A DNA stretch of 64,000 nt. It comes from Chiloscyllium plagiosum. Its lineage: Eukaryota. The stretch covers positions 47,108,116 through 47,172,115 of the forward strand of contig NC_057718.1 of NCBI RefSeq assembly GCF_004010195.1, written 5' to 3'. Both the position numbers and the translations under genes were made by a program. Below the pieces are notes generated by a model. It saw nothing but the letters and a program-made list of their open reading frames with translations, did no database searches and was not told the origin of the DNA. Positions 540 to 62,399 of this stretch are shown piece by piece. The first letter of the stretch is position 1. The number at the start of each line of letters is the position of its first letter.

Positions 540-1319
540 AACATGTAGCCAGAACTATATATTTTTCTAGGCCATAGTAAGGACTTACTTGTATTTCATA
601 ACCTGCTTTTGAGCTTCTTTCTCTTTGTGACTGTTTACTTTTATCCCTTATGTTTAAGGCTTGTGGGTTCCTCTTCTACTCAAAAATGCTGAACTGTTTT
701 TTTTCCTGCAAAGATTCCCCAAAAAAGCAGAGCTACTCAAAAGACTATATGATGAATATGGTTCCTCCATGGACCTAAATTCCTGAAGTAAAAGATCATA
801 GTGTTTTGCTTTCTTGCCTGTCCTCCTCTACTTAATAGGTAAAGTTTGAATAAAGAAGATCATAGCTACAAAAACTAGATACAATGTCATGTTGGGATTC
901 AAACATAGGTCCCCAGCGCATTACCTCAGGATTAACAGTCTAGTGATAACAACACTAGGCCATTATCTCCCCAGTTGGTATGTAGCTAGCCCCAAGTAGT
1001 CCTTCTATGTTGTAGCTTCACCAGGTTGAAACTTTATTTTTAGGTTTGCCTGGTATTGTTCTTGACATGTCCTCCTGCACTTTCCCTTCAAGCAGTTCTG
1101 AACCTCTGGCTTAATGGTAATCGTAGAGAAGAGGAATATACCATTAAATTACTGATTGTTTTATATGATCATTCTGTTGCTGCTGGTGGCCCACTTCACA
1201 CAGTGGTAGCACTGCATAACATGATCAAGGGCATCATTAAAGTGATGTAAAGACTTTGTCTCCACAAGGACTTTGCAGTGGTTACTTCTACCAATATTGT
1301 CATGGACAGATGCTTCTGT

Positions 1320-1519
1320 GCTGGAAATGTGTTGCTGGAAATGCGCAGCAGGTCAGACAGCATCCAGGGAACAGGAGAATCGACGTTTCGGGCATAAGCC
1401 TCTCTTATGCCCTAAACGTCGATTCTCCTTTTCCCTGGATGCTGTCTGACCTGCTGCGCTTTTCCAGCAACACATTTCCAGCTCTGATCTCCAGCATCTG
1501 CAGACCTCACTTTCTCCTC
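1320..1519. mobile_element. Palindromic PLE derivative, family A, with 14 bp TSD
   Basis: Arms ~1320-1400 and ~1405-1483 are inverted copies, followed by a 3' tail. Flanked by ACAGATGCTTCTGT at 1306-1319 and 1520-1533. Confidence 0.85.
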
Positions 1520-1966
1520 ACAGATGCTTCTGTAACAGGTTGACTGATGAGAAATTGGTGAATTAATTATTTTTCTCTTGTTGGTGCCTTATCACCTGCC
1601 ATTGATCCAGTCTAGCAGCAATGTCCTTTAGGACTCAGCCAACTCAGCCATTTTTAGCAATGGGCATTCAAACATCCCACTCAGAGTATATTCTATGCCC
1701 TTGACAACCTCATTGTTTATTCCCATTCATGTTCAACATGATCGTGTTTTGATTTATCAGCCCAGATTGCAAAGGTGATAGGTTGTAATCAGCAGGAGAT
1801 TTCATTGCCCAGATTTTATCTAATGGAATGAGAATACATTAGATCTGGAATCAATCTAGAGGTTTCCCAGAGCAACTCCCTCCTGACTATGTATCACTGT
1901 GGCACCACCTGTGCTGGGTCAGTTCTGCTGCTGGGATACGACATAGCCAGGGATGCTGAGAGTAGT

Positions 1967-2127
1967 AGGACTGCAGATGCTGGAGATCAGACTTGAAGAG
2001 TATGGTGCTGGAAAAGCACAGCCAATCAGGCAGCATCCGAGAAGCAGGAGAGTTCATGTTTCATTCCTGATGAAGAGTTTATGCTGCTTGATCAGATGTG
2101 ATTTTTCAGCAACACACTCTTCAACTC
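1967..2127. mobile_element. Decayed palindromic PLE derivative, family A-like, with 15 bp TSD
   Basis: ctgcagatgctggagatcag...cctgatgaag. Flanks GATGCTGAGAGTAGT (1952-1966) and GATGTTGAGAGTAGT (2128-2142). Confidence 0.75.
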
Positions 2128-3784
2128 GATGTTGAGAGTAGTGGCTGGACTTTGTCTATAACATACAATTTTGTGAGTATGATTGTCTCAGGCTGTTGCT
2201 GATTATATTGTGGAATTATTTTCCCAATGTTATCACAAAACACCCAACTATTAGTAAGAGTGACTTTGTAGGGTCTATAGAGTTGGGTTCACCTTTGGCG
2301 TCTCCAGGGCCTAGGTTGACGCTTGTTGATGTGCACACTTTCTTTCCTTTCTTTCAACCTTGTAGCAGTTTGTATACAACTGAGTGGCTTGCTAGGTCCT
2401 TTCAGAGGGCAGTGAAGAGGGCACCACATTGCTGTGGTCTGAAGTGACTTGTAGGTCAGACCAGATAAGGATGGCCGATTTTCTTCCTTACAGAACAATT
2501 TTGAACCAGTTGAAGTTTTTGTTCCATAGCTCTAGCCAAACAAGATTCTGTCCCTGCCCCTTTGGGACAATCTCACTCTCCAGTGCTGCAATGTCCTCCC
2601 AATCAATGCAGTTACTTCTCCCTCTTTGTTTCTTTATGTGTCTTTCTTGATCATCTTGTCTCCAGGAATATTTAATAAGTAGTGTTGCCCTTTTTTGAGA
2701 CAATGTAGCACAACATCATATCTAAATATGGCTACCTCCAGCTGAAGCACTCCCATTTTGTTTACCACACTCTGCTCATTCGCATACCTGCATTGTAACT
2801 CTAATTTACAGTTTATAGCTTGCACCCTTATTCTACACCAACCTAGTAACATATCATTTGTGACTCAAGTGCTAGCTATTTCTCCCAGTATTCTGTCCAC
2901 CTTGGTATTCCTTACTATTTCATTCCTCATTCCCTCAACATTACCAAGGATTTATTTTAAACTCTCACCAAAATCATTCGCAAATCCTCCCATAAAAAAA
3001 CTGGTCCCAGTTATCTTTAGGTACAAGTCATCTGGCCTTGTACCACGTCCACCATTGTTAATTCCAGTGCTCCAGAAATCTAGAATCCACCTACTTGAAC
3101 CATCTTTCAGCCTCACATTCACTTGCTTTTTTCCTACTTCTATACCTACATAATTGTGGAAATGGGATTACTATGGAAATTACTCTGGAAGTTCTGCTTG
3201 CTTACTTCCTCAGCAGCCTAAATTCTGACATCAGGATCACATGCTTCTTTCTACGTACCTGATATCAACATGGGCCCTAACTACTGGCTATTCACCCTCT
3301 GCCGTCATGATTCCCTGCTGCTGGCTGTTCAACCTCCTGCTCAGGAACAACTTGTCAGTCATTCAATTAAATCCTTAAACTTGACACCTGGACAGGGGGG
3401 GGGGTGGAGGGCGGGTAATATACCACTCTGGATTGACAGCTGCTGTTGCAGACTTATGTGTCTGTTTCCCTAACCATCAAATTTTCTATCCGGAGAGCCA
3501 CATGCATTCATGGGACTCCTGCACTGCCTGCCTGCTTCTTCTTGAATGCCTGGTAGTCCATTAATTTCCCTGTCCCAAAAAATCCTAAGCTGCGGATGAC
3601 CATATCTCTAAACATACCATCCACAAAGGTCTCAATCTTCTGGTTACACTGTAATGATATGAACTACAGGTGAAGTTCCAAAGCAGAGAGTTTGAGGTGC
3701 TACAGTTGATGACATTTCCTGCCCATATGGTTGGCTAGGACATGGAAAGCTGGTCCAAAGTAGTTAAGCTAATGCCAACCCAAA

Positions 3785-4070
3785 AGTAGAGGGTATAGGT
3801 TTAAGGTGAGGGAGGAAGAATTTAAAAAGGACCTGAGGGTCTTTTTCATGGAAAGGTGGAGCATGTAATGGGACCAGCTGCCAAAGGAGGTGATGAAGGC
3901 TGGTACAATTATAACATTTAAAAGGTATCTGGATGGGTACATGAATAGGAAGGGTTTAGAGGGATATGGGCCAAATGCTGGCAAATGGGACTAAGTCAGG
4001 TTGTGATGACTGGTCACCAAGGATAAGTTGGACTGAAGGGTCTGTTTCCATGCTGTAATACTCTATGACT
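3785..4070 (+). mobile_element. CR1/HER1 LINE 3' fragment
   Basis: Homologous to 150-539, with the same 3' tail. Confidence 0.85.
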
Positions 4071-5157
4071 TTGGGCAGGGATTTTACTGTAAAAGAAAAT
4101 ATGAACTTTAGGGCATCAAAACATCACAGATGGTACAGAAACCTGAATTTCTGGTTTCTAATCAAAAAATTTATTTCCCCAACCCTCCACTAGCATATAA
4201 AAACAGAGGAAGGACTTAAAAAGTATTTCATTGCTTACAAGCACTTTGGGGTAAGCAGAATACTAAATCTTGCTTCAAATAATAGTACTTTTTGAATTAA
4301 AGAAATTCAAAAATATTAAAATTATGAAAAACTTTTCCAAGACCTCTCAAAACAGTTGCAAAACTGTTCTGTCTTGATCATTTGAGGGTAAAGATTACCA
4401 GTACAAAAGTGACTAGATAGTGAGTTCAAAGTAATTACAGGAATGTCAAGGTTTCGATGACTTTGGAAACAGTTTGCACTTGCTTGCTACAACACCATCT
4501 TACAATATACATGATTTCAGCATTCTCAGAAGTGTTGGACTGCAATTGAAGATTCTTACAACAGAAGGATAAATCATGTTTGTTTAAGGAAGTCTGTTTT
4601 ATCTTTCTGCTCAGTCTGATGAACTGCGGTACAAAGATAGTTCTGAAACTGTATGGTCACTTCTTGCTGATTTCTACTAGCTTTATCTACTTTTCCTGTT
4701 TAACATTTTTTAAAACAAGCAAACTCGGGTGTGTTTTGATGTCAACAAGTATAAAGGCTGTTTGATGTCTAAAAGTTTAATTTCCTTCTCCCCTTTGACA
4801 TACATACCACTTTTACAAAAACATTTGATTAGTGAAAAGTGCTCATTTCAGATAGTTTTGTCTATTCTTCTTTATGGAAATTGCATTCAACATATGGAAA
4901 TCTAAATTGGATTTGAATAGAAATAAAAAAAGTTGGAAAATTAGATATTCTCTCAAGGTTGTAGTGTTAACACTATTTAGGCATTTGTGGGTCACAATAT
5001 TGATTCTCCTAGATATTTATGTGTTTACAAATTGTATTTTAAGACAGTATTGTAGATGTATTAATTACATGGCTATGAAACAATCTGACAATCTACAAAT
5101 TGTCAGGAAATTAACAAATGGTTTTCACAGACAACAGAAACTACATTGACCTAAGTT

Positions 5158-5297
5158 CAAAATTAAAAATCACACATCATCAGGTTATAGCAGCACTCCA
5201 AAAGCTTGTACTTTGAAGTAAACCTTTTGGACTATAACATGGTGTTGTATGATTTTTAACTTTGTCCACACCTAGTCCAACACCGGCACCTCCACAT
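5158..5297. mobile_element. Short palindromic PLE derivative, family B
   Basis: ttaaaaatcacac...gttatag and ctataac...gatttttaa inverted arms plus tail. Flanked by CCTAAGTT at 5150-5157 and 5298-5305. Confidence 0.75.
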
Positions 5298-5364
5298 CCT
5301 AAGTTAAAAATGACCATTTGTGTATGCAAGTATCAGTTGTCAAAAATGCAATAAAGGCACAGTA

Positions 5365-5545
5365 AAATGCATTTTTATAGGATATTTAACATTCTGGGAC
5401 ATCCCAAAAACTTCACCACCAATTAAATAGTTTTCTATTATAGTCACTATTGAAACATAAACAAACTTGTGACTCAATTTGTAAGTTTGAACACACCAAG
5501 ACCCCACAAGTGGCAATAAAATAAATGACTGGATAATATATTTAG
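5365..5545 (-). mobile_element. Decayed Deu-domain SINE (SacSINE1/AmnSINE1-like) 3' part; related pieces at ~6385-6460, ~6945-7110 and ~38220-38345
   Basis: Resembles the recalled DeuSINE reverse-strand consensus (tttatatagcgcctt..., gggatctttta..ccacctgaga). Confidence 0.5.
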
Positions 5546-5849
5546 TAGGCCTGGCTAAACTCCAGCTGTTTGCTTGTATCCTACAGCATTGAGAAGGCAA
5601 ATAGAATTTCATTGTGGAGAAATGCATATTTTAACGGAAAGTAAAAGAAAGATAAAAAAGCAGGCAAGAAATTCAGTAAGCTGTGCAGCCTTAATTGCTT
5701 CAGTCACGACCCAGAAGACGAGTAGCTTAAAGCAGCAGAGACAGCTGAATTGATTTACTGGGTCAATAGGAAGGGCAGCACATGATAGAAGCAGCTATTT
5801 AATCTATTACAGTACTATGAACATGATATTTTTTTTAAAAAAACACGGA

Positions 5850-6080
5850 TGGTCGTCGGTACCGTGACAGCTTCTTTTATTCTTGGTCCTAAGTAAAGCA
5901 GATGGAAAGTTTACAGACTGACTCATGGGGCTGTAAATATTGACGTGAGCTGTGCTGGAAAGGTGCCTCACCCTACTCCGGAACGACCAAACAGACCGCT
6001 CCCCATATCACCAAGGTTTATTTACAATATCACCATAACTAACAGCCCGCAGCTGGGCTGCAGGAAATCCATTATTGGTC
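5850..6080. promoter_or_regulatory. Candidate promoter/enhancer: clustered AP-1, CRE-like, FOX and CCAAT motifs in locally CpG-richer non-repeat DNA
   Basis: TGACTCA 5919-5925; TGACGT 5941-5946; GTTTACA 5909-5915; TGTAAATA 5932-5939; TATTTACA 6019-6026; ATTGG 6074-6078; minus-strand AATAAAA near 5875-5881. Confidence 0.4.
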
Positions 6081-8719: not shown

Positions 8720-9400
8720 TCCAGGGGTACAAATGCAAAGTTCCTTGAGAGTTGCAGATAGACAAGGTCACGGAGAAGGCTTTTGGCACGCTTGCCATCA
8801 TTGATCATAACGTTGAGTATAGGAGTAGGGACATCATGTTGTGGCTGTACAGGACATTGGTGAGATCAGTTTGGAATACTGCATATAATTCTGATCACCC
8901 TTCTATCACAGAAAGATGTTGTTAAGCTTGAAAGGGCGCAGAAAAGATTTACAGGGATGTTGCTGGGTCTGGAGAGTTTCAGCCAAAGGGAGACATTAAA
9001 TAGGCTGGGGCTTTTTTCCCTGCAGTTTCAAAGGCCGAGGGATGACCTGATAGAAGATTATAAAATCATGAGGGGCAAGGATAGGGTGAATAGCCAAGGT
9101 CTTTTTCCTTTGGTGGGGCATTCCAGAACAAGAGGACATAGGTTTAAGGTGAGAGGGGAAAGATTTAAAAAGGATCTGAGGGGGTAACATTTTCACACAG
9201 AGGGTGGAACAAGCTGCCAGAGGAAGCGATGGTGGAGGGTACAGTTACAACATTTAAAAGGCATCTGGATGGATAAATGAATAGGAAGGGTTTAGAGGGA
9301 TATGGGCCACATGCTGGCAAATGGGACTAGGTCAGATTGGGATGTCTGGTCAGCACGGATGACCAGAAGGGTCTGTTTCCATGCTGTATTACTTTATAAC
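8720..9400 (+). mobile_element. CR1/HER1 LINE 3' fragment
   Basis: ORF 8957-9187 (LNRLGLFSL...RTRGHRFKVRGERFKKDLRG) is the CR1 ORF2 C-terminus, followed by the typical tail. Confidence 0.9.
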
Positions 9401-10273
9401 TGTTTAGTGTGTAATAAAGGAAGTTGAAACCATCTTTTTAGTAGTGGAGCTAAAGCTGGTCTAAAGACAGGGACAATTACTACCTCAGATCTGAGAAGCA
9501 TAAGAAACCCAAACAGGCTACAGAAATCTCAAAAGACTACAAGAGTTTAAAAAGAAAGTAGTGTTTGAGAAGTCTGCAAAGCAAATCGAGATTGGGTTTT
9601 GCACACTCCATTGGTCATTGCTGGAACGGAAAGTATAACCTGAAAATAGTGCTAATTACTGCCTCACTTACTATTTTATGTTTAATAAATCTTTTCACTT
9701 TGCTGCAATTTGATGGTCTCTGTTGACTTATTAATCATGCTCAAATTCCTTACATCAAGAATACTGTTGAAATAGTAAAGGATAAAACTTACAAGTATCA
9801 ATACAGTCAAATATTTGGTATACCCAGTCGATGTGGAGCAACAATCAACAAAACAATTACACTGCTGAACTTTGAGCAAGAATAAGTCAAATACAACTGT
9901 GACTGTGCTTTATTTATGCTGGTTAAACCATACCTTGTGTACTGTTTCCAGTTTTGCTTACTGAGAAACAAGGGAGGTATTCAAAAGCTAGAAAAAATGT
10001 AGAGAAGAGACAAAATCCTAATGCCTGGGATAGATTTTCAGTATGCTACACGGGCCTAAATGTGACATTGTGGATGGTCACCTGATTTTCAATAGCCAAG
10101 GGCAAGAGATGCAACATTGGGAAAGGGTGTGGCATAGGAAACAAGAAGATATAGAATGGGAGTGACAGTGAAGAGTATGTTAGGAGATAAAATGGAGGTT
10201 AGAAGATGGGGGAGAGAAAGAGTAAATGTGATGATCACAAGGCAGTTTTAACAAGTGTGTAATAAAGAAGGTT

Positions 10274-10402
10274 TCCTGAAGAAGGGCTTATGCCCGAAAC
10301 GTCGATTCTCCTGTTCCCTGGATGCTGCCTGACCTGCTGCGCTTTTCCAGCAACACATTTCCAGCTCTGATCTCCAGCATCTGCAGACCTCACTTTATCC
10401 TC
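10274..10402 (+). mobile_element. Single-arm PLE 3' end, family A, with minimal hammerhead core
   Basis: CTGAAGA (10276-10282), A, GGGC-TTAT-GCCC, GAAA (10296-10299), C-GTC, followed by the same tail as 1415-1519. Confidence 0.8.
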
Positions 10403-20152: not shown

Positions 20153-20352
20153 AGGCAAAAGCAAGTACTGCAGATGCTGGAGATCAGAGTCAAGCTTAGC
20201 GTGGTACTGGAAAAGCACAGCAGGTCAGGCAGCATCCAGGGTGCAAGAAAATCAATGTTTCAGGCAAAAGCCCTTCATCGGGAATCAGCTTTGATTTTCC
20301 TGCTCCTCGGATGCTGCCTGACCTGCTGTGCTTTTCCAGCACCACTCTATTC
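20153..20352. mobile_element. Palindromic PLE derivative, family A
   Basis: Inverted arms gctggaaaagcacagcaggtcaggcagcatcc and ggatgctgcctgacctgctgtgcttttccagc. ATTTCAGCA repeated at both flanks. Decayed hammerhead remnant on the minus strand. Confidence 0.8.
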
Positions 20353-22546
20353 TTGGAACCTATTTCAGCAGTCCAACTACCATATGTGAATAAACAATTA
20401 ATGATCATTAGGCTTGTTGACAGTCTAATTAAAATGAATATACACTGCCCACACTATGTGGGCAGCCACACAGAATACCATGATAAGAGTTTATTGTCTC
20501 ATCAGTCTGAAAGCTCCTTCTCCTTGCCACCTATAGGTGCTCCCTTCATATGTGCTCAACAATCAATAGCCACTACACATTTGTTTTTATTAACCTTAAA
20601 TAAAACATTAAATACGTTATTAATAAAAGATTAATAGTAGGTACTTCTTTCAGGAGGTTCCCTACACACACTGAGGGTGCCCCTCAAAATGTAATTTCCC
20701 CTCTTCCTTCCATGGTGCATGCCCTTCAAAACTCCCCCCAAACCCAATCTCTTGCTCCTTTGCCTTGGTCAAGAATAATTTCTTGCTTAAATTATTGGGA
20801 TTTACCTTTCTGGTACAGTCAAAATTCTCTTCAAGCCTCTTTCTACAGTCTGAGCAGTGCCCATCACGAAGCCCCAGTCAATCTGGTAAGTCAGCAGTTC
20901 CCAAATGTGGGACTTATTTCCACGTCTACCACTAACCACTTCAGCCTGCAGCATGTAGTGGCAGTGGGGTGCAGAACAGGCTTCTCCATGTGTGTCAGCC
21001 TCCAGCTAGCATTTTTCTAGCAGACAACAGTGGTGGGTAAGCATTCTGCCTGTCCATCCTCCTCTCACCACCCTCTTCCTACATTCCTTTATACATCCAA
21101 TGTGTGCCTTGTAGGTATTGGAGAACATTGAAAACTCAAAGTGAATAACTTTAAACCTCAGTATGATACATTCTTGATTGACAGGGGAGACAAAAGGAGT
21201 AGGGGATGTACATGAAAATTAAGTTGAAGCCACAATCAGGTTAGCAATGATCTTACCAAATCTTGGAACAAGCTAGATGGGTTCCTAGTTTATATCTCCA
21301 GTAATCTGATCTGTTTGATCCTTTACCCCCCATCATCCCTTTCCACACACACATCTAAACCCACCTAAGTACTCCTCAATCCACTTTGAGGCATTCTGAG
21401 CTGGTCTGTGTGTTTCTTTGTTCTACTGTTGCAGTTGAAACTCACTGCATTTTACTGCTGTTCACTCAGTTTGCTGTGGTCAGAGTATAATTATATGGCA
21501 TTGAACAAGAGTTGAACATAAACCTCCAGTGTCTCTTTTCTGGTTTGATTGCTGGCCTGCCTACCATTTGGTCCTGATCTTATCATCTCAAATGTTTTAC
21601 AATGTGCCACTTGACATGACAGTCTTCCCTCGCTCAGTGCTTCACTATCTAACTGTTTCCTTTCCAATCTAATCCCAATGCTACATTGCATAGTGTTTTA
21701 GTATTTCTGCATTAGGAGGGAGTATTTTTGCCAACCTTGCAGGATTAACCTCAGGTTTCCAGGGATTGAAGATGATCCTCGATTAAACTGCAAGCAACTG
21801 GGGGAGAATCATCAGGACAATAAAACGTTCCTTTAATCTTTTAAGTTTTTTTTATTCGCCTTTCCTTTTTTGTTACATTGGAGATGGGATATAAGTGCTG
21901 GATGCCTCTTCCCAATTAATTCCCACTTGACCATGACAAAGTAGTGGGCCATTCAGTGAATGCTTTGAGTGGCTTATGGTAACAACATGAGTTGGGATGG
22001 GTAAGCAAGAGGTGACATGTTGAAACCTATATATAAGCTGGAAAATGGATGAGGACGTCATAGAATGTTTTTGAGTGAGTTACTAAATGCATTGTATTCT
22101 AGAATCAACCAGCATCAACAGGTTATGCTAGTTTCATTGTACAATGTGACTGGATTATTTAATAAATTTAGGGTAAAGGAATCCCTAGATGGTAACAACC
22201 ACGATATAATTGAATTTTGCATTCAGTTTGAAAGGGAGAAGTTTGGATCCAATACGGTATTTTAAACTCAAATAAGGGCGACGATGTGGGCATGGAAACT
22301 GAGCTAGCTGAAGTGAACTGAGCTAGGGGTTAGATCAGTAAGGAAGCAGATATCTGAGAGGATATTTCTGAATACACAGAACAAGTACATGTATATTACT
22401 AACATAAAGAAAAACTCTCAGGGGATGACCCACCATCCGTAGTTAACTGGAAAAAAAAGGATTAAAGTTAAGGTAAAACATTTAGTTGCTCAAAGGTGAG
22501 TGGTGGGTCAAATGAGTGAACAAAATATAAAGAATGTTAGACAATG

Positions 22547-24135: not shown

Positions 24136-24505
24136 AACCAAAAAAGAGAAAATGCTGGAAAATCTCAGCAAGTTTGGCAGCATCTGTAAGGAGAGAAAAG
24201 AGCTGACATTTCAAGTCGAACTGACCTTTGTCAAAGCTAAAAAAAAGGGGAAATAGGGAGGTATTTATACTAGGCTGAGAGAAGGTGAGTCATGGCTCCA
24301 GAAGTAAGGTAGCAATAAAGAGGTGATAATGACAGTGCATAGAGAGATTATAGGGAGATTAGGAGTTGTGAATGACGAAGGCTGAAGCCAGTGCTATGTG
24401 ACAAAATATGTGGGGGGTGGGGGGGATGGGTGAAGCAGAGGCAAAATGGAAAACAAGGGAGAAGGGTAGCAAAGGGGAAAGAGGAGTGGAAAAAGGTGAT
24501 GAGAG
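24136..24505 (-). mobile_element. PLE 3' end of a further family, with 14 bp TSD
   Basis: aatgctggaaaatctcagc...ggcagcatctg terminus related to the other PLE tails. Flanks AGAACTCCTGATTA (24122-24135) and AGAACTCCTAATTA (24506-24519). Confidence 0.7.
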
Positions 24506-27202: not shown

Positions 27203-27804
27203 AGGTAAATGAAGAAACAGCTGTCATCCTCTAAAGTGTTGGCACACTGTGATGCCAAGTGAGATCTGATATTGTCATGCAATGCCTCCCCAAGAGGGAT
27301 CAGGGGAGTATTAACTCATAGGTGGCCAAATAGAGATGAATGGCCAATTATAGCACATTTTCAGCTCTGATCTCCAGCATCTGCAGACCTCACTTTCTCC
27401 TTCCCAGACAGTGTTCCAATTTGTAATTATACATACTTAGTTCAGAGCCCATTGCAGAATTTGGCCTGAAACTATGGGTGCAGTGCCTTGTCCTCTTTAA
27501 GTAGACCTAGCAGGAGATTGTGGTCCGCTATTATTACAAATTTATGTCAGTAAACGTATTGGTGGAACTTCCTGACACTGAATGTGGCTGCCAAACCTTC
27601 CTTCTCTATCTGGGTGTATTTATATTTTACATTAACCAAAGTTCTGGATGTATATATAATTGGCCATTCATCTCTATTTGGCCACCTATGAGTTAATACT
27701 CCCCTGATCCCTCTTGGGGAGGCATTGCATGACAATATCAGATCTCACTTGGCATCACAGTGTGCCAACACTTTAGAGGATGACAGCTGTTTCTTCATTT
27801 ACCT
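27203..27804. repeat. Perfect 150 bp inverted duplication (27203-27352 versus 27655-27804)
   Basis: Direct comparison of the reverse complement. The left copy abuts a family A PLE tail (27353-27400). Confidence 0.92.
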
Positions 27805-33411: not shown

Positions 33412-34625
33412 TTAGAACATAGAAAAGTACAGCACAGAACAGCCCTGAGGCCCACAATGTTGTGCCACGATTTAATCCTAATGTAAAATATAGTAACTTA
33501 ACCTATGCACCCCCCACTCACTGCTATCCATGTGCATGTCCAGCAGTTGCTTAAATGTCCCCAATGACTCTGCTTCCACCACCTCAACTGGCAATGCATT
33601 CCATGCATTCACAACTCTCTGCGTAAAGAGCCTACCTCTGATGTCTCCTTTATACTTTCCTCCTAATATCTTCAAACTATGACTTCTCATATCAGTCAAT
33701 CCTGCCCTGGGGAAAAATCTCTGGCTATTGACTCTATCTATTCCCCTCATTATTTTGTACACCTCGATCAGGTCTCCTCTCTTCATCCTTCTCTCCAGAA
33801 AGAAAAGTCAGAGCTTATTCAACCTTTTCTCATACGGCAAGCCCACCAGTCCAGGCAACATCCTGGTAACCTTCTTTTTACCCTCTCCAAAGCCTCTGTA
33901 TCTTTCCTATAGTAGGGCGACCAGAACTGGACACAATATTCCAAGTGTGGTCTCACCAGGGACTTGTAGAGCTGCAGCAAAACCTCGCGGCTCTTAAATT
34001 CGATACCCCTGTTAATGAAAGCCAAACCACCATATGCTTTCTTAACAACCCTATCCACTTGGGTGGCAACTTTGAGGTATCTATGTACTTGCACACCAGA
34101 TCCCTCTGTTCTTCCACTCTGCCAAGAATCCTGTCTTTAATGCTATATTCAGCATTCAAGTTCGACCTTCCAAAATGCATCACTTCGCATTTATCCAGGT
34201 TGAACTCCATCTGCCATTTCTCAGCCCAGCTCTACATCCTGTCTATGTCGCGCTGATGAAGGGCTTTTGCCCGAAATGTTGATTTTGCTGCTCGTTAGAT
34301 GCTGCCTGAACTGCTGTGCTCTTCCAGCACCACTGATCCAGAATCTGGTTTCCAGCATCTGCACTCATTCAGCAGTGCTAACCACTGTGCCACCATGCTG
34401 CCCACAAAGAGCAGAGGCTCAAGAACAGAGCCCTGCGGGACCCCACTCAACACTGTCCTTCAGGCAGAATATTTTCCATCTACAACCAGTCTCTGCCTTC
34501 TGTCAGCCAGCCAATTCTGAATCCAGATAGCCAAATCTCCCATACTTCCTGACTTTATGAATGAATCTACCATGGGGAACCCTATCAAATACCTTGCTGA
34601 AATCCACATACACCACATCCACTGT
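33412..34625 (-). mobile_element. CR1 LINE 3' portion (different subfamily) with a chimeric patch at 34253-34403
   Basis: ORFs MEFNLDKCEVMHFG..., LYKSLVRPHLEYCVQFWSP and RGDLIEVYKIMRG. Confidence 0.9.
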
Positions 34626-36890: not shown

Positions 36891-37147
36891 TGATTTGGAG
36901 ATGCCGGTGTTGGACTGGGGAGTACAAAGTTAAAAATCACACAACACAAGGTTATAGTCCAACAGGTTTAATTGGAAGCACACTAGCTTTCGGAGCGCCA
37001 CTCCTTCATCAGGTGGTTATGCAGGACACAATTGTGGATGCCTTACAATTATGTCCTCCACAATCACCTGATGAAGGAGCGGTGCTCCAAAAGCTAGTGC
37101 TTCCAATTAAACCTGTTGGACTATAACCTGGTGTTGTGTGATTTTTA
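36891..37147. mobile_element. Palindromic PLE derivative, family B, with a hammerhead core in each arm and a 12 bp TSD
   Basis: Arms ~36930-37035 and ~37046-37148 inverted. Flanks ATCCAGAGGATA (36879-36890) and ATCCAGAGAATA (37148-37159). Confidence 0.88.
36981..37015 (-). ncRNA. Minimal type I hammerhead ribozyme motif (CUA cleavage triplet)
   Basis: Minus strand CAC-CUGAUGA-A-GGAG(UGGCG)CUCC-GAAA-G-CUA-GUG: helix I CAC/GUG, helix II, and palindromic AGCU in place of helix III. Confidence 0.7.
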
Positions 37148-45030: not shown

Positions 45031-45084
45031 TTTGAAATTCTGATGTTTGTCTTGAGAGCAAGATGAGAAGCTTTGGTAATACAC

Positions 45085-46730: not shown

Positions 46731-46878
46731 AAACACCGAAAGAACTGTGAATGCTGGAAATCAGAACCAAATGCTGCCACATCTGGCAGCATCTGTGAAG
46801 TGAAATTGGAGTTAACTTTTTGAGTCCAGTCACCCTTCTCAGAACCAGCTGAGCTTTTTCAGCAATTTCTGTTTTTGT
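46731..46878. mobile_element. Decayed palindromic PLE derivative with 14 bp TSD
   Basis: aatgctggaaatcag...ggcagcatctg terminus. Flanks TACAAAACTATTTT (46717-46730) and TACACAACTATTTT (46879-46892). Confidence 0.65.
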
Positions 46879-49029: not shown

Positions 49030-49280
49030 CAAAGCTGTGGTAAAAACAAAATCCTAGAGAAAATCAATAGGTCTGGCAGCTTCTATGAAGAGAGAAAAAT
49101 AGAGTCTCTGCAGAACTTCCTGTTTTTATTTCAGATTTCCAGCATTTTCAGTATTTTGCTTTTTTGCTCAAAATTGTGCCTATTTGATTTGATCAAAAAT
49201 CAAACTACACCAAGTTATAGTCCAACAAGTTGATTTTTGACCTTGTCAACTCCAGTCCAACTCTGGCATCTCCACATCAT
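49030..49280. mobile_element. Two adjacent decayed PLE-derived palindrome remnants (second is family B)
   Basis: ggtctggcagc...gatttccagcat, then aaaaatc...gttatagtccaaca...ccagtccaactctggcatctccacatc. Confidence 0.55.
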
Positions 49281-49994: not shown

Positions 49995-51300
49995 AAAACA
50001 AAATCAGAGAATACTGTAAATGGTCAACTGGCAGGCAATATTTGTGCAGATAAACAGAATCTTCCAATTTTAATCATTCTTTTGCTTTGTTATGATCTAT
50101 CTCCAATTCTTTTGTGCCCTTTCTTGACTTTCTCTCTCCATATGGATAATGGCTATTCACAAATAAGGCCATCAACTCCGACATCTACTTTGGCCACACT
50201 TCTTCACACTCCATTTCCTATAAAGACTCCATCCCACTCTTTGAACTTTTACATCACTGTTGCATATGTTCTGACAAAGCAAGCTTTCAAACCAGTTCTT
50301 CTTCCTTTTCCTCAACTGAAAATATCCCCCACCTTGGCTGATAGAGGCCTCAATCATGTTTGTCATATTTCTTGCACTTTTCCTCTCATATCTTCCCCTA
50401 CCTCCCAAAATCATGATAAGGTTACCCTTGTCCTTACATTGCATCCCACCAGCCTCCATAATCACTTCATCACCGGCTGATATTTCTTCCATCTCTAGGG
50501 TGATGCTTTTACCAAATGCATCTTCCTTTCCATTCTTAGCAATGTGTAGGATTTGTTCACTGCTCAACACTATGATTAACTCCTCAATTACTCCCAACAC
50601 CTGCCTCCACTATCCCTCTCCTTATAAATGCAGGAGCTGCAATACCTGTCTTTTTACCACCTCAGCCTTCACTATCCCTGGCTTCAAACCCTCCTTCTAG
50701 ATGAAACAGCAATTTATTGCTTTGTGGAACACTTTCATTTAGTCCACAAGCTTCCAGTCACCTATCATTTTAATTCTCCTCTTTTACCTCTCTTTTCTCA
50801 GCCTGAAGTGTTCCAGTGAAGCTCAATGCAAGCTTGAAGAACAGCAGCTCAGATTTCAATTAAGCACTTTAAGCAGATTAAGTCTTTCAGACTCAACATT
50901 GAGTTCAACAGTTTCAGAATGTTAACCACTATCCCCAAGTTGTTTTGTTTCTCTTGGCTGGTTTTAGTTTTATTCTATTTTAAAATTTTATTTCCACTTT
51001 AAGACAGTAACTATTCATCATCTACTATTACACTTATTCAAAAGACAACTTTTTTCTTTACTTGTCCCGTGCCTTGCTCTTCCCTTTGGCCTTGCACCAC
51101 CTACACTTTTGTCTTTTAATCTCTTCTGTCTTCCAGTTTGTCACATACATTTTTCTTCTTCCCATCTCCACTTTCACGTTCTTAAAATTACTACATTTCT
51201 AACTTTTCTCAGTTCTGATGACAGGTCACCAAGCTGAAATATGCATTTGTTTCCCTCTCCACAGATGCTGTAAGATCTGAGTATTTTCAGCATTTATTTC
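49995..51300 (+). mobile_element. Old Neptune-like PLE (RT thumb, Cys linker, GIY-YIG C-terminus, 3' hammerhead remnant) in a TATDN3 intron
   Basis: HTSSHSISYKDSIP (~50190), CRSCNTC (~50630), LPVTYHFNS (~50750), KLEEQQLRFQL...LNIEFNSF (~50830-50920), CTGATGA...GAAA at ~51215-51239. Confidence 0.75.
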
Positions 51301-53121: not shown

Positions 53122-53399
53122 CTAATAGGAAGAAAATAACGATTAGATTAACACAATGCACTAGTAGACTGAATGATCCAATCTTATTCCTGCTGTGAAG
53201 CGCCTAAAGTTGAATGCAGTACTATATATGGGATGTGCCCAAAACTCTGCACTCACTTGTAATTCAAGATCCCTGGAAAAAGACTAAGGTTCCATTAATT
53301 CTTTTGATTCTATTCAAAGAGTTGCAGTGATTTTTATGCAAGGACATTCAAATCTCTACTTCTCTCGAGTTATTTTTTTACAATGGTTAGGATTAAAAA

Positions 53400-54150: not shown

Positions 54151-55301
54151 CTGGAGAAGAATGTTTATTAATGCATGGCAGGAAACACTGCCAAATTAAA
54201 TTCAAAGATTTTACAGTGGTGGTACAAGCTTCCACCAATGCTGCAGGTTGGAAGCAGCCATTTGAAATGAATATTTCGCGGCAACTTTGATTTTATGCTG
54301 TAAATCTGAGTTTAGAGACAATAGAAAATAGCTGATATTAGATCATCACTTTTGATTTTCCCAAAATCAAAATTACCCGTACGATATTCAAAACTGTACA
54401 TTGAGCGCTGGGTTAACATCAATGATCATGACTGACCCAAAAATCACATACATTGTAATGTCAATGCTTTCTCAATATGTGGCTTCACATCAGAAGATTG
54501 AATTACCACTGATTTATCAGCACTTTCTTGGTAAAAACCAAGCAGAATTAATCAGCTTTATACGTATCTAGAAAGCATTCCCTGGCCAAATTAATTTCCA
54601 TGTTATTTCAATGTATACATAGGTGGTACAAAGGAACTCAAAGGAACTATAGGATATTTGATTGACTGTCTCCCAGGAAATTTATCTTTCACAAATTCTG
54701 TTAGCTGACTAAGTGCCTGAAATCAAAATCTTTCTTTGAACAGCAATGGAAAATCCTAACAAGCTATATTCCCTCACAGCACCACCATAAAAAGCCCTTC
54801 AATATTTCCTGACAGAAGCAGCAACAGACTCCGCTAAGTAGAGTCAACCTCTGTCATGTCCATTCAGGACCTGGGAACCTAATGAAAGTAGTCAATTTTA
54901 TCACAAGGACAATAATTATTTGTAGCAACCATGAAGAATACCCATTGTGATAGAAAAAATGATTTGTGAAAGATGTTGTAATAAATCATTTGAATTGGTG
55001 TTCAGTTTTGTATAATGACATTGGGGAGTAGGTGTTATATCTCAGTTTACATGCTATAGCAAGGTGACAAACAAGGATTTTAAGATAGATCATTCAGAAT
55101 TTGAGAGGAAACAGATCCATGTGAGCTGATAGAGTCAAATAATTCTCAAAGTTTTATGACTGAACAAACATTTTTGTCTAATTAACGTTTTTAATGAAGA
55201 AATCATTTCATGGGACTTTACAGAAGTCTAATCAAAAGAGACAAAGGAAATATTAGGGAAGCCGAATAAAGGACTCCAACTGAAAGAGTTAGTTGGATCG
55301 T

Positions 55302-55560
55302 TGAGGAGCAAATTGCTGCAGATGTTGGAATCTGTACTGAAAACAACAAATGCTGGAGATCACAGCGGGTCAGACAGATCCTTGGACAGAGAGCAAGCTA
55401 ACTTTTCCAGCTTAGATGACTCTTCATCAGAGCTGAAGTGAAATACGGAGGGAACAGCATTTTTACTATAGTTGTGGGAGGGTGGTATGGGGTGCTGGGG
55501 TTTAGAGTGCTGGGGGAGAAAAGTTGTTGATAGTTCAGATTAAGTGTTCAGAATATGAGC
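55302..55560 (-). mobile_element. PLE 3' end with decayed hammerhead
   Basis: PLE-type terminus ctgcagatgttggaatc...aatgctggagatcacagc. Minus strand reads CTGATGAAGAGTC...GAAA near 55400-55431. Confidence 0.65.
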
Positions 55561-56869
55561 ATGTACGGACTGTCTAAGGACCAGTAACTTCAGATAGGGA
55601 TTCTGGGAAATATCTCAGAATGTATCTTGGTCTACAGATTATGCTGGATTGGTATTGGTGGAGTGGTCTGGCTCTCCTGGGGCACTAAACAATTAATCTG
55701 ACTTTTTTTACACTCTCAAATTGTTCCTCTTTCTTCAACATATAAATCATGTACAAGAGGAAACCATTTTTAAAAGGTAGTGATTTACAGGTTCTGGAGT
55801 TTTCTGCCAAGACTAGCATTTATTGACCATCCCTAATTACGCGAGAAGACGACAGTGGCAAATAATGGACCATGATACTTCTCTTGTTTTAGGTGCCTTA
55901 CTCCCTCAACCTTAATCTCTCCTATTCTCACCAATTCCATTAACATCTGCATCAAATGCACTTCAAATAATAATGTCAAGAAAAACTAGGTAAATTATTT
56001 TTCCATAAAACTTTTTACTGACAAAAAAAAATTATTTTACACACCAACCCCTTCAGGCAGTCAGACAAACTCCAAAATATTATCCTGCATTTATTTTCAA
56101 AAAGAAAAGTAAATAAGGCATGAACAGATTAGCCATGACCTCACTGAATGGCAGAGCAGGCTTGGAGATACCTTCTATTCCTGATTCATATGTCCATATG
56201 AAAATAAACCCGCAAGTCACTTTTAAAGGGGAAAGCCTCTCTCCATTTGCTCCAGACGCTTACAACACATGAATTAAAACAGGTGGACAGTGCAGGAGCA
56301 TATCCAGTCATAACAGCTGATTTGGCCTCCAACCCCCTGGGTGCAGAGTCTGGGTAGTGTGGGAGAGGATATTAGAATTAGTCCAGAAAATGGAAAATAT
56401 GTTTGCAATGTAGGCTGGCAGTAGGACTGCAGCAACCTACAATGGGAAGATGGAGGGAATGCTGGCAACATATTCAAGACTCTAGCAGCTTTCTCGGGTT
56501 TTGCCACCTCTGTCTCATGCACTGTCTTTCTCGCGCTCTCTCTCTCTACCTCTGCTCAGCTGTCACTTTATGAATTAACGAATGTCTCACATCCCGTCCA
56601 GGACTCACATTGTCCAGGTGAAAACAATGACCTTGAAGCCTTTGCAGACTCAGGTGGTCGTGCATTGGACAAGCCACTTGTTACCAGATGCAAGTGTGTT
56701 GCCTTTATTGTGTCCATTTGTCTTCTTGCCTGATCACTGCAAGAACAACACGCTGGTCCCATTTCCACAGTCCATTTCTACTATCACAACATTTATTTTC
56801 AGGCACTTATCCCATTCCTTTTAGAAAGTTTTGGCCCTGAAGGGGGATTTTCCAAATTTACATCCCCTC

Positions 56870-57860
56870 TACTGGATCATGCCTGGCATTTGTGTAGCAT
56901 GAATGTCACTTGCCACTTAGAAGCCCAAGCCTGAATGTTGTTCATGTTGCAAATAGTCATGGTCATTAACCAAGGAGCGTAAATTAAATTGAACACGAGG
57001 CAATCATTAGCAGACATCCTGATTTTGGACTTCATAAATGGTGGGAAGGTAATTGATGAAGCCGTCAAAAATTGCTGATCCCAGAACAGTTCTCTGAGGA
57101 ACTCACCCAGTGATGTTCTGAGGTTGAGATACTTGATCTTCAACAATTACAACAATCTTTCTTTGCGCTAGAACTGACTAGTCAATGAATGGTTTTGTCC
57201 TGATTTGCTCTCATTTCAATTTTACTCAGGATTCTTGATGCCTCACTTAGTAAAAGCTGCCTTGACATCAGCGAAAACAATTTCACCGCACTCTGGAATT
57301 CAGCTTTGATCGTGTTTACCAATGCTCTAAGGCAGTCTGCAGCCAAGTAGTCTGGCAGAGTCAGTAAAAAGGTTATTACATGCTTGATAACATAGTTTAC
57401 TGTATTGTTCTATGCTTTTTTTTATAATTGAGAATAGTTGATAGAGTGATAGAGTGATAGTTGGAAAGATTGGTTTTATCCTGTCTTTGGGCAGATTTTC
57501 ATTTTTCTTGATATATGCTGTACCAGTAATAGAACAGCTTGATTAAGGCCAGAACCAGTTCAGGAACACATCTTAAGCCGAGAAGTTATCAGGCCTGATA
57601 CCTTTTGCTCCATGTATCCATTGCATTCAACCATTTGTTGACATCATGTGGAGTGAAACAAATTGGCCCATAGCTGGCATCCATGATGGTGTGGGCATCA
57701 GGTGGAGGCCAAGATGGATCGAATTGTAACTTCTGGTTGAAGATGGTTGCAAACATTTTAACCTAGTCTTTTGTACTCATGTGCAGGCTTAATCAACATT
57801 AGAGATGGGGGTGTTCATGAGGCCTCTTCCGGTTAGCTGTTTAACTATCCCCCACTATTA
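56870..57860 (-). mobile_element. Very old CR1/L2-type RT fragment
   Basis: ANDCLVF...NIQAWASKWQVTFMLHKCQ corresponds to FADD...W...WQ..F...KC. Confidence 0.6.
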
Positions 57861-59373
57861 AGCAACCTTTAAATCTTATCTTATAATTACCTTGACACAA
57901 AATAAGGAGTAGGCTTCCTGAAAATAACTTTAACATTATTTTTTACAATTGCTGCTGTGTCTTCCAAGATGCACTGAAAGGTTCTACAAGACATTTCAAT
58001 GAGGATGATCTCTTTGACCTTTATTTCTATTTTGATAAGTGGGTGAACAACTTTTAAACAGTGCAACTTACAATGGGTTTAGAATTTAGAATCCCGTGTA
58101 TCAGCAACTGAAGCAGAATAAAACTACAATTGGAGTACATCACACCACGTGATGTCTTGTGGAACCTCAGGATAAATTGGCTCATTCAGAAATTTCTGGT
58201 TCTGCAAAGGTACCGATTCTATAGGGCTGCATTTACCACTACCCTGCCAATTGGTTTGAAGGTATGATGACTTTAAAATCCAGCAGGAAGCCTGCCAACT
58301 ACCTTCCTGCCTATCCTGCTAAAGTAATTATATCAGTCATTGGGTTGCCATCAGGATACTCATCTGCCAGTGGACCAACTGAAGCCCCTAAATGGATAAT
58401 TAAAGCTCACTCGAGTCTCTCATCTCATCATTTCCAGGATTTAACAGGCAGCAGAAGAAAACCATGCCAAGCAGACACGCCAAAAGATTTCCTTGCACAG
58501 GGAAGGGACAGGAAGGGCCCTTCTTAACTGGATCGTGGACCCATCAGAGGCCACACCCTTGGTATAACATGATACCCCCATCCCAGGGTGGCCATCCCTC
58601 ATGCCTGCATAAACCTCAGTCCCTTTCTTAGGCCTGCCAGCATGACAACTGGCAAGTCCCAAACAATGACCCAAATCCTGATTCAGTACTGCATGCCTCT
58701 GTCCCCAAGTGTTGAAGAGCTCTCAGCCTCTGATTCAGATGTGACTTCTGATCCAGAAGGGGTGAATGGCAATTGTCTGTTAATAAATGAAGGTGAGACT
58801 TCCATGCTCCTGGATCAGAAAGTCTGGTTTCAGAACGTATCAACCAATCAAAGGCAGGTAGATCTCCAGCACTCTGAGACAGAGTTCAACAGGCCATTCA
58901 ATTTGACATTTAATAGCTGCAGGATAACCAGTGTTCCCCTTAACAGGGTCCCCTCACCTTTTTACTGGTGGTTAATGGAACCTGGCAGATTGAATGATTA
59001 AGTCTCTAATTTTACTACTTCCTCACACTAGGAATTATGGCTGTAAAGTATATCTGGCTTCTTCTGCAAACAATCACGCCTCAAAATTTGTATAATAATG
59101 TATCCATTCAAAGAAAATTGTAACTTGATCAGGCACAATGTATGTACTATAGCATTATTATGAACAGTGGTAAGAAAATAGATGGGAGAGTTTGGGAAAG
59201 TAAATAGTTTGTTTCATTATACTATTAATCAAATAGTTGTCATGTCAAACAGCTGATAAACTTGAACTGTCAGTCTGTACAATAATTTTCTCTGGCCATA
59301 AATAGATGACAAGTAGCTTGGACTTTACTATACCCCAGCTCTTAATTCTCACAGAAATAAAGTTCTACATTAC

Positions 59374-59483
59374 AAAGGTAAATCCAGGCGCTTTGCAATT
59401 TCAATCTGTTCAATGAAGACCTTTCTCTGTTCATTTTTCTGTGCCTCAGTGCTGGCAAATCGTGGCGTGAAATCCAATCCAAC
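59374..59483 (-). CDS. TATDN3: TATDN3 internal coding exon (110 bp): VGLDFTPRFASTEAQKNEQRKVFIEQIEIAKRLDLP + 2 nt
   Basis: Manual translation of the minus strand matches the recalled vertebrate TATDN3 segment VGLDFSPRFA...QIQLAKRLNLP. Acceptor ttttattctag, donor gtaatg. Ends in phase 2, compatible with the next exon. Upstream exons were not found and probably lie beyond 64000. Confidence 0.95.
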
Positions 59484-59854: not shown

Positions 59855-60340
59855 CTTCAAAGTTTGTGAGAAGATTTATAGCTCGGGTGCTCGTTGTTGT
59901 GGTTCTGTTTGCCAAGCTTGGAATTTGTGTTGCAGACGTTTCGTCCCCTGTCTAGGTGACATCCTCAGTGCTTGGGAGCATCCTGTGAAGCGCTTCTGTG
60001 ATCTTTCCTCTGGCATTTGTAGTGGTTTGAATCTGCCGCTTCCGGTTGTCAGTTCCAGCTGTCCGTTGCAGTGGTCGGTATATTGGGTCCAGGTCGATGC
60101 GCTTATTGATTGAATCTGTGGATGAGTGCCATGTCTCTAGGAATTCCCTGGCTGTTCTCTGTTTGGCTTGTCCTATAATAGTAGTGTTGTCCCAGTCGAA
60201 TTCATGTTGCTTGTCATCTGCGTGTGTGGCTACTAAGGAGAGCTGGTCGTGTCGTTTTGTGGCTAGTTGGTGTTCATGGATGCGGATCGTTAGCTGTCTT
60301 CCTGGTTGTCCCATGTAGTGTTTTGTGCAGTCCTTGCATG
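59855..60340 (-). mobile_element. Young Penelope/Poseidon-like PLE 3' fragment: GIY-YIG endonuclease followed by a hammerhead
   Basis: ORF 59952-60353: CKDCTKHYMGQPGRQLTIRIHEH...H.FDWDN...REFLE.W...IN. Confidence 0.9.
59932..59971 (-). ncRNA. Minimal type I hammerhead ribozyme motif (GUC cleavage triplet)
   Basis: Minus strand GCA-CUGAGGA-U-GUCACC(UAGACA)GGGGAC-GAAA-C-GUC-UGC: helix I GCA/UGC and palindromic ACGU in place of helix III. Confidence 0.75.
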
Positions 60341-60344
60341 CAAA

Positions 60345-60660
60345 TCCATACACATATCCACCTCTGCATGAAAAAGTTTCCCCTTGGTCTATTCCCTTTC
60401 AAATCTCTGTCCCCTCACCTTAAAACTATGTCCTCTAGTTTGGAGTCCCCTACCCTGGGAAAAGATCTTGACTATTCACCTTACTCATGCCACACATGAT
60501 TTAATAAACCTCTATAAGGTCACCCCTCAGCCTCTGACGCTCGAGGGAAAATATTCCCAATCTATTCAGCCTCTCTATTGCTCAAACCCTCCAACCCTGG
60601 CAACATCCTCATAAATCTTTTCTGAACCTTTCAAGTTTCACAACATTCTTCCTATAGCAT
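60345..60660 (-). mobile_element. CR1 3' fragment fused to the 5' truncation point of the PLE
   Basis: Homologous to 30800-30990. Confidence 0.8.
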
Positions 60661-60834
60661 GACTAAAGAAGGTTTCTTTGCAAGTTTCCTTTTGTAATCC
60701 CTTTTAGTAACCTTATCAGCTTCTTTGTGACCGTTTGCTGGTCTTTCTATCTTTCCTATTTGGCAAATCTGTGCTGTGTTTTGCATTTTCGGAAGTCTTC
60801 CTTTTAGTTTTATACTGTTCTTATGTATTTAGTT

Positions 60835-62377
60835 AAAAATCACACAATACCAGGTTATAGTCCAACAGATTTATTTGGAAGTACTAGCTTTCAGAGCACT
60901 GCTCCTTCATCAGGTGGTTGTGGAGTGTAAGATCCTAAGGGACAGAATTTGCAGCAAAAGTTTACAGTGTGATGTAACTTAAATTACATATTGCTAAAGA
61001 CCTGGTTTGTTTGTTAAGTCTCTCATCTTTTAGAATGAACATATTGATTTCAGTTCTTTCATATGTAAATCACAGAACTTTTTTAAAGTTACATTCTCAA
61101 GTGAACTTTAACAATTGGTGTCATGTCAGCCCAGATAATGCACTGAAGGCTTGAGGTGCCCTGTGTGAGACTGTCTGTGCCACAATGTTCAAACTGACTC
61201 TAATCTAAAAAAGGATTTACAGAATCTTACATGGATTCATGCAGTTTTTGAGCAAAATAAAATGTAATTCTGCAAGTACAAATTCACCTCACAAACCTAT
61301 ATGTGTATGCGTGAGCATGTGGGTGTGTGTGCGTGCGTGTCAGGTTGGGGTTATGAGTGTCTGTGAGAGAGTGTGTGTAGTGTGCGAGTGTGAGTGGAAA
61401 GGGGTATAAGTCTGTGAGAGGGTGCGTGTGTGCATGAGAGTGTGGGAGTGTATGTGTAAGCATATGAGAGAGAGCTTATGTATGAGAGAGGGTCTGCGTG
61501 AGTGTATGGGTCTGTAGGAGTATGTGTGGCTGTGTCTGAGAGCGTGCCTGTCTGTGCGCGAAGTACAGTGGAGTCACCTGTATTGTGACATGAACCCAAG
61601 GTCTCGGTTGAGGCCATTTCCATGTGTACCAAACTTGGCTATCAGCCTCTGCTTGGCCACTTTGCGTTGTTGCCTGTCCAAAGTCCGCCTTGGAGGACGG
61701 TGACCAGACGGTCAGGTCACCCAGTCCTACAGACACACACACTCCTACAGACCCACACATTCACACAGACCCTCTCTCATATGCTCAAACATACACTCCC
61801 ACACTCATGTACATACACACTTCCACACTCATGCACATATACACATTCTCTCACAGACACTCATAACCCCAACCCAACACACACACACACACACAGGCAT
61901 ACATGCACATAAACGTTTGTGGGTACTTGCATATAATTTCATATTATTTTTCTCAAAAACTGCATGAATCCATGTAAGATTCTATAAATCCATTTTTTAC
62001 ATTAGAATCAGTCTGAACATTGTGGCACAGACAAACAGTCTCACACAGGGCACCTTAAATGCATTATCTGGGCCTACATGACACCAATTGTTAAAGTTCA
62101 CTTGAGAATGTAACTTTTAAAAAGTTCTGTGATTTACATATGAAAGAATTGAAACCAACAGGTTCATTCTAAAAGATGAGAGACTTAACAAACAATCCAG
62201 GTCTTTTTCAATATATAATTTAAGTTACACCACACTGTAAACTTTGGCTATAAATTTTGTGTCTTACAATCTTATACTCCACAAACCAGCGCTCCGAAAG
62301 CTGGTACTTACAAATAAACCTGTTGGACTATTACCTGGTGTTGTGTACACCCCAGTCCAACATTGGCATTTCCAAAT
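60835..62377. mobile_element. 1.55 kb inverted-pLTR Neptune-like PLE, family B, with a GIY-YIG C-terminus in the loop and a 15 bp imperfect TSD
   Basis: Arms ~60835-61532 and ~61725-62346 inverted. The loop encodes, on the minus strand, QQRKVAKQRLIAKFGTHGNGLNRDLGFMSQYR* (stop 61574-61576). Flanks CTTATGTATTTAGTT (60820-60834) and CTTACCTATTTAGTT (62378-62392). Confidence 0.88.
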
Positions 62378-62399
62378 CTTACCTATTTAGTTGGCATAG

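Follow-up and report, generated by a model that had tools for sequence, protein, structure and literature searches.

In a 64,000-nucleotide stretch of the genome of the shark Chiloscyllium plagiosum (contig NC_057718.1, positions 47,108,116 to 47,172,115; hereafter the window), we characterized short, often palindromic insertions that resemble miniature inverted-repeat transposable elements (MITEs). We conclude that they are likely single-step insertion products of endonuclease-bearing Penelope-like elements (PLEs), best explained by a scheme with two primers. Each insertion corresponds to the 3' end of an element whose 5' truncation point differs from copy to copy. In many cases two such ends form head-to-head arms within a duplication of about 14 bp, one arm ending at a tail and the other about 40 nt short of it. 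We are confident that the insertions are 3' ends of several PLE lineages, at least three of them related (families A, B and C-like) and one of Poseidon type.

An earlier note on this DNA had listed at least eight insertions with related PLE-type termini. All eight are present in the window, and profile searches placed their ends in the A, B and C-like lineages. Seven more loci of these families came to light in the same searches, together with an end of Poseidon type. In all, the A, B and C-like loci number 15 and occupy 3730 bp, or 5.8% of the window, and the density of PLE ends is about one per 4 kb. These results rest on the one 64-kb window and on contigs and reads of sequencing runs.

Arms, tails and junctions of the inverted insertions

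Arm positions are given relative to the hammerhead nucleotide C3, numbered +1. The inverted-arm structure that the note had ascribed to most insertions is clear in six of the eight (81-96% arm identity), weak in the one at 46731 and missing from the one at 24136. With an unlisted insertion at 49191, this makes seven clear palindromes, which measure 89-1544 bp.

The family A insertion at 1320..1519, delimited by arm alignment and its target-site duplication (TSD), has a folding z-score of -24. It consists of a tail-less left arm (+10..+90) and a tailed right arm (+12..~+127), identical at 76 of 79 positions and separated by 3 untemplated nt. Its junction lies within stem II, and the CUGANGA core is absent from both arms. 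An old family A insertion at 1967..2127, also recognized by arms and TSD, has a tailed left arm (+20..+115) and a tail-less right arm in which a deletion separates -4..+17 from +47..~+93 (38/47 identical). At 20153..20356, identified in the same way, a tailed left arm (-4..~+127) is joined to a tail-less right arm (+27..~+92; 57/65 identical), and the core is mutated.

In family B, an old insertion at 5164..5297 (arms and TSD) joins a tail-less left arm (+56..+82) to a tailed right arm (+11..+120) through 2 nt of microhomology, with 38 of 43 positions identical. The arms of 36891..37147 (arms, TSD, folding z-score -21) agree at 95 of 103 positions: the tailed left arm (about -24..+122) keeps an intact hammerhead motif, and the tail-less right arm (about -30..+82) has a mutated GAAA box. 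The insertion at 49191..49279, in an intron of the host gene TATDN3, is formed by a tail-less arm (+45..+81) and a tailed arm (+74..+122). Finally, a large insertion at 60835..62378 (arms and TSD), also in a TATDN3 intron, has a tail-less left arm that reaches -815 and a tailed right arm that starts at -606 and is identical to the left arm at 551 of 613 positions. At 1.5 kb, it is too long for the mini-element it had been called. Three boundaries were revised: 5164 replaces 5158 as a left end, with a 14-bp TSD, 20356 replaces 20352, and the right end of the 60835 insertion falls at 62376-62378. The limits of 36891, of 49191 and of the -4..+17 piece of 1967 were set by arm alignments, a hammerhead scan and inspection, and not by an automatic junction fit.

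A one-sided tail of about 30-40 nt had been proposed. We found tails of 37-40 nt in four listed elements and a shorter one, of 23 nt, in 1967. Exactly one arm is tailed in all seven clear palindromes (p 0.008 against independent choice), and the junctions of all seven differ, as expected for truncation products with variable centres. Because every junction differs and each palindrome has one tailed arm, we regard the palindromes as insertion products, neither MITEs nor a mini-element copied as such. Upstream, the tail-less arm extends further in four of the seven (1967, 36891, 49191 and 60835, by about 24, 6, 29 and 209 nt) and the tailed arm in two (5164 and 20153), 1320 being marginal. Apart from 1320 and 60835, microhomology or filler at the junctions amounts to just 0-3 nt. 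Filler letters also vary at further family A junctions in contigs of three DNA runs (12 of 614 rows listed). At the outer ends, the terminal 20 nt of the two sides match at just 2-9 positions in all seven elements tested.

Target-site duplications

Direct repeats were sought with a slop of ±8 nt at the element ends, against a null of 600 random intervals. All eight listed elements are flanked by significant repeats (p<=0.01) with 0-2 mismatches, although this rate is biased, the eight having been picked for their repeats. The presence of TSDs was thus borne out. Their length, previously given as 8-15 bp, is mostly 14 bp, with a range of 12-16 bp. The TSD of 1320 is an exact 14-bp repeat (1306-1319/1520-1533), and that of 1967 has 15 bp with one mismatch. 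At 5164, 24136 and 46731, it measures 14 bp with one mismatch each, the first having an alternative reading as an exact 8-bp repeat if the left end is 5158. At 20153 it is 14 bp with two mismatches (p 0.010), at 36891 12 bp with one and at 60835 14-16 bp with two. No target-site consensus is evident across the eight TSDs. Two of them, 1306-1319 and 1952-1966, both of family A insertions, contain the word GATGCT, which also occurs in the family A terminus, and the 1306 target is nearly palindromic.

Among six further loci included in the test, 49191 alone reached p<0.05 (10 bp, p 0.028). For six solo copies, repeats sought within 3 kb scored 6-9, inside the null range of 6-12. Overall, TSDs are found at eight of nine inverted loci versus one of seven solo loci (Fisher p 0.009). 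One solo case could be read directly. The family A copy at 10272..10394 (+ strand, -4..+119), absent from the earlier list, carries an intact minimal hammerhead motif and lacks a TSD, and an empty site in sequencing run X13 (record 14) skips exactly these positions. This insertion therefore occurred without target-site duplication.

Parent elements

The large family B insertion links these termini to a coding element. On its tail-less arm, 661 nt upstream of the hammerhead core, lies the frameshifted C-terminal end, with its stop codon, of a PLE open reading frame (ORF) of GIY-YIG type (61574..61711, - strand), recognized by its match to protein P0001: positions 61577-61678 are 85% identical to the P0001 C-terminus over 34 amino acids (aa). 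P0001 in turn matches the C-termini of proteins of 707-881 aa with RVT_1 and weak GIY-YIG matches, and its relatives include RT + GIY-YIG proteins of 799-881 aa. Four relatives, P0020, P0072, P0085 and P0122, carry RVT_1, three of them also with a sub-cutoff GIY-YIG match. Since the remnant matches P0001 and its relatives, the family B termini belong to an element encoding a reverse transcriptase (RT) and a GIY-YIG endonuclease. The Neptune-type CxxC linker, a Zn-finger-like segment between RT and endonuclease, is found in the nearest full-length relatives of family B (P0020, P0169 and others) and not in P0002 or P0007. The remnant in the window does not extend far enough to span this linker.

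Families A and C-like have homologous termini (E 1e-5 to 2e-7), and it is through this homology with C-like copies that a parent element may be assigned to family A. The Poseidon-type end (family D, 59855..60350, - strand), also new to the list, comprises part of a GIY-YIG coding sequence and, after it, a hammerhead-like motif at 59968. It shares 80-85% identity with RT-bearing Poseidon-type proteins of sharks. A Pfam scan gave no PLE match among 149 ORFs, and the PLE remnants were recovered by homologue searches. Terminal inverted repeats (TIRs) of DNA transposons with a fixed short TSD (TA or 8 bp) were not seen, and homology to elements coding for RT and GIY-YIG was found. The reading of the insertions as retrotransposed, extremely truncated PLE ends with variable centres, and not as MITEs, is thus upheld.

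A proposed two-primer scheme and its alternatives

How the two arms arise is less certain, and we lean towards a mechanism with two primers. A PLE protein would make a staggered cut with nicks about 14 nt apart, and both 3'-OH ends would prime on the element RNA, one at a distal and one at a proximal RT start site. Each cDNA would stop early, independently of the other, and the two would then be end-joined, with either microhomology of 0-3 nt or a few bases of filler at the joint. Priming from one end only would yield a solo stub, usually without a TSD, and palindromes would not be copied as such. The closest biochemical precedent is the anole Poseidon element PAc (Frangieh et al. 2024, PMC11167929), whose protein, a predicted dimer, was shown in vitro to cut the two target strands and to extend each of them. 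It uses two internal start sites on the RNA, one on either side of the tail, giving ends with and without it. PAc differs in that family B is nearest to Neptune-type CxxC proteins, and the accessible part of that paper describes neither an inverted product nor a TSD.

Several points weigh against this interpretation. The sample is seven palindromes from one window, and later deletions at hairpin centres could have altered arm lengths. Two wholly independent primings do not explain the strict pairing of one tailed with one tail-less arm, for which the complex would have to be asymmetric. The two arms of 1320 have a private C>T in common, as expected from one template, and junction hairpins at 1320 (in stem II) and at 60835 (a small one, at about 61704-61726) are compatible with self-priming. 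The TSD contrast is inflated, as solo boundaries are harder to place and several copies are old. On the side of the parents, the ORF link of the C-like family is weak (a PLE RT/thumb match with iE 0.012, about 900 bp upstream of 51215), and no window copy of family A reaches an ORF, none of its nine arms extending upstream of -4.

From the same parents, the second arm could instead have arisen at a local palindrome where one cDNA, or an antisense RNA, folds back or primes itself, an explanation that we find possible but less probable. Fold-back was put forward for rotifer PLEs on the basis of palindromes at inverted junctions (PMC3846280), the shared variant and hairpins just mentioned speak for it, and it would account for a tail on just one arm. 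It predicts, however, that one type of arm always contains the upstream limit of the other. The upstream excess occurs in both directions, which a single fold-back cannot give, and the five junctions with little microhomology or filler do not favour it either.

It is rather doubtful, though worth considering, that the family A stubs derive from a short (~130-nt) non-autonomous RNA that starts just upstream of the hammerhead and is mobilized in trans by a PLE, the palindromes being built at insertion. Three of the nine arms start at -4 and eight start between -4 and +27, a cluster that is not a single identical end. In each DNA run, about 650 contigs have loose ends before 10273 whose letter agreement (0.34-0.35) is like that of unrelated flanks, compared with 0.64-0.68 where a LINE-like (long interspersed element) copy continues, and non-autonomous PLEs have been described (PMC8557442). 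Against this, the consensus of the loose ends closes in a shared CCTCA before 10273 in four of four runs, which shows that some of the family extends further upstream. Since the window copy stops at 10273, nearby 5' ends pile up there in any case, and the same accumulation would follow from a transcription start in the pseudo-long terminal repeat (pLTR) or from stalling of the RT. Family B, moreover, ranges continuously from 89 bp to 1.5 kb and retains remains of the ORF.

It is very improbable that a palindromic mini-element of fixed form propagates as a hairpin. Several family A palindromes do measure about 200 bp, and in each run 13-34 contigs repeat a joint from near 1398-1400 to 10273; yet the filler letters vary among these contigs, no two window junctions are alike, the tail switches sides and the hammerhead core is missing in most copies. 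MITEs of a DNA transposon, suggested by the short palindromic form, the direct-repeat flanks and the possible 8-bp TSD at 5158, can be set aside in view of unmatched outer ends, TSDs of 12-16 bp, a wide range of lengths and termini linked to a GIY-YIG ORF.

Returning to the two-primer scheme, we tentatively suggest that the stubs record how a PLE integrates. A dimer would cut about 14 nt apart, prime on both strands and always pair a start at the tail site with one at the inner site, and family A would be made of copies of a short, hammerhead-headed non-autonomous RNA; this combined picture is possible but still improbable as a whole. If it is true, with roughly 10^5-10^6 ends in each of these shark genomes (a rough figure), sequence alone would suffice to test how the inverted structures of PLEs originate. 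Arm-extent and TSD statistics from a shark genome could tell two primers from fold-back.

Comparison with known systems

In the 5' inversion of L1 by twin priming, the second nicked strand also primes and an inverted piece is enclosed in one TSD. The two L1 pieces are non-overlapping parts of one RNA, whereas the shark arms are overlapping 3' ends.

The architecture itself is already published, and the shark stubs are a miniature form of the known PLE insertion pattern. Typical PLE insertions are truncated at the 5' end, have an inverted copy next to them and bear a tail of 30-40 bp on one side (PMC8557442), and the TSD examples from rotifers measure 8-10 bp (PMC3846280). Both papers present the mechanism of the inverted ends as an open question. 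The shark units share with endonuclease-bearing PLEs the head-to-head ends, the one-sided tail (37-40 nt), the TSD around the whole unit and a GIY-YIG parent. They differ in that most are the last 90-260 bp without an ORF, and in a TSD mode of 14 bp against 8-10 bp in rotifers. Their interest lies in the pattern of arm extents and TSDs, by which models of PLE integration can be tested. Our literature searches found no paper on palindromic PLE stubs in sharks; Dfam, Repbase, most subscription journals and supplements lay outside these searches and may catalogue the families. An expansion of PLEs has been reported in whale shark introns (10.1101/443036).

Minimal hammerhead ribozymes found solo or in opposite-strand pairs about 100-700 bp apart have been ascribed to truncated PLEs (PMC4209133). 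The window motifs resemble them in the CUGANGA core, the bulged base before stem II, the palindromic positions 15.2-16.2 and the mostly solo occurrence. They differ in being intact in only two of the eight listed insertions, and no shark is named in the accessible portion of that paper. Non-LTR retrozymes (10.64898/2026.07.22.740005) are likewise related to PLE pLTRs, contain a type I hammerhead, encode no protein and are reported in one chondrichthyan. They form head-to-tail tandem arrays, in contrast to the solo or head-to-head shark units with TSDs, and none of the nine tandem-repeat rows in the window holds the motif. For annotation, the consequence is that such stubs, which resemble MITEs, would wrongly be classed among the DNA transposons.

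Hammerhead motifs and RNA

A minimal-hammerhead descriptor detected three sites in the window against 0.05 expected (60 shuffles), two within listed elements (36891 and 60835) and the third in 10272. The descriptor is strict and missed the family D motif at 59968. Besides 36891 and 60835, the listed insertions have lost or mutated the core. The hammerheads are probably inherited passengers, mostly dead, and hammerhead cleavage is reported to be dispensable for anole PAc (PMC11167929). A ribozyme-processed family similar to short interspersed elements (SINEs), one of the origins proposed before, is not sustained by these data: only one of nine family A arms starts near the cleavage site, the core is lost in most copies, and 5' ends lie off the cut site at +28, except perhaps in one arm of 20153. 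At E<=1, Rfam gave no hammerhead match in the window and one irrelevant match. ARAGORN, a weak test, found no tRNA head. No pile-up of read starts or ends was seen in one poly(A) single-cell run, a library unsuited to self-cleavage.

The suggestion that these insertions are a major source of hairpin RNA in introns is not supported. An intronic position, in TATDN3, is established for just two of the eight, 46731 and 60835, and the other six lie downstream of its last coding exon. A perfect helix of at least 29 bp occurs at four loci in the 64 kb, one of them intronic, and no locus-specific RNA was seen. For 1000-10600, no RNA data set was listed. In RNA run X21 (~2% of its reads), reads fell on repeats only, a fraction of 0.95 running on unlike, and there was no depth on the unique bins of 500-14700; the run is uninformative on expression. 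A role as hairpin RNA may exist for single long copies such as 60835 in its TATDN3 intron.

Age and abundance

The insertions at 1967 and 5164 are present in two further organisms, B and C, in which contig pieces start inside 1967. The solo copy at 10272 is absent from organism B and probably from organism C. The 1320 insertion is probably absent from organism B, where pieces of equal depth end near 1316 and resume near 1542. Summed depth puts the ends of family A at about 5-6 x 10^5 per genome. As depth is no copy number, this gives just the order of magnitude; it agrees with nine arms in 64 kb. Outside the shark, viral contigs gave no copy, and four matches in metagenome contigs and three in bacterial genomes were rejected as chance, as they covered a short pattern only.

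Other insertions of the window

The C-like copy at 24136..24505 (- strand) is solo and tail-less, with a pyrimidine-rich upstream part, a degenerate hammerhead and a TSD. It has no inverted arm and a folding z-score of about +1, and is not palindromic. At 46731..46878, a C-like insertion with a TSD in a TATDN3 intron has its family pieces inverted, yet little pairing is left, the local hairpin being just 12 bp. The remaining loci were not in the earlier list. A decayed C-like inverted insertion without significant TSD lies at 49053..49168 in a TATDN3 intron. A decayed long C-like copy at 50021..51298 (+ strand) includes the weak RT/thumb match (50021-50305) and a degenerate hammerhead at 51215, its terminal part (51209) being the addition. 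Solo copies for which no TSD was found comprise one of family A at 34250..34372 (+ strand, +1..~+110), inside LINE-like DNA, and a C-like one at 55308..55431 (- strand) that starts at a degenerate hammerhead. A further decayed PLE RT/thumb remnant at 44253-44756 (- strand, iE 3.7e-7) has no recognized terminal family nearby.

A 49-nt tail stub of family A at 27354..27402 (+ strand) sits in a Gypsy-type pol remnant and is joined on its 5' side to an inverted copy of nearby DNA. This copy, 161 bp long (27192-27352 versus 27655-27815, 98% complementary), derives from DNA 250-410 bp away, and, to judge from the reading frames, the target probably lacks about 90 bp. Such an arrangement would fit a PLE insertion with a templated 5' junction, or else a slip in the assembly.

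Host gene and surrounding repeats

Within the window, the coding exons of the host gene TATDN3 span 41389-59483 on the minus strand. Its five coding exons in the window (59373-59483, 53064-53120, 49544-49657, 46376-46453 and 41389-41532), found by protein matches, encode aa 104-269 and are identical letter for letter to a TATDN3-named protein of Chiloscyllium punctatum; the earlier exons lie beyond the window. The scan for host exons and domains covered 147 of 348 ORFs of at least 55 aa, two chosen frames and 150 of 327 shorter unmasked ORFs. In this partial scan no second gene was found over 1-41388, where one may still exist. Several shark gene models (P0004, P0008, P0011, P0013, P0027 and P0113, e.g. 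MAP3K7 and NT5DC1 isoforms) carry translated pieces derived from PLEs or repeats, which may be annotation artefacts or exonization.

An assembly gap of 305 N (14797-15101) falls within a LINE-like RT remnant, and two 100-bp tandem copies (260-459, 99%) inside a LINE-like 3' end are a possible assembly artefact. A SINE-like repeat of about 310 bp occurs three times (22559-22896, 26521-26830 and 39221-39529); it may resemble the shark HE1 SINE. Two inverted pairs are not of PLE-terminal origin. The older (51760-51881 / 52477-52596, 78-91%) lies in a TATDN3 intron. The other, unrelated to the PLE families, is of about 340 bp (38735-39075 / 40278-40620, 92-96% identity, 1.2 kb spacing), follows the final coding exon of TATDN3 at a distance of 770 bp and could pair in the 3' untranslated region or in read-through RNA.

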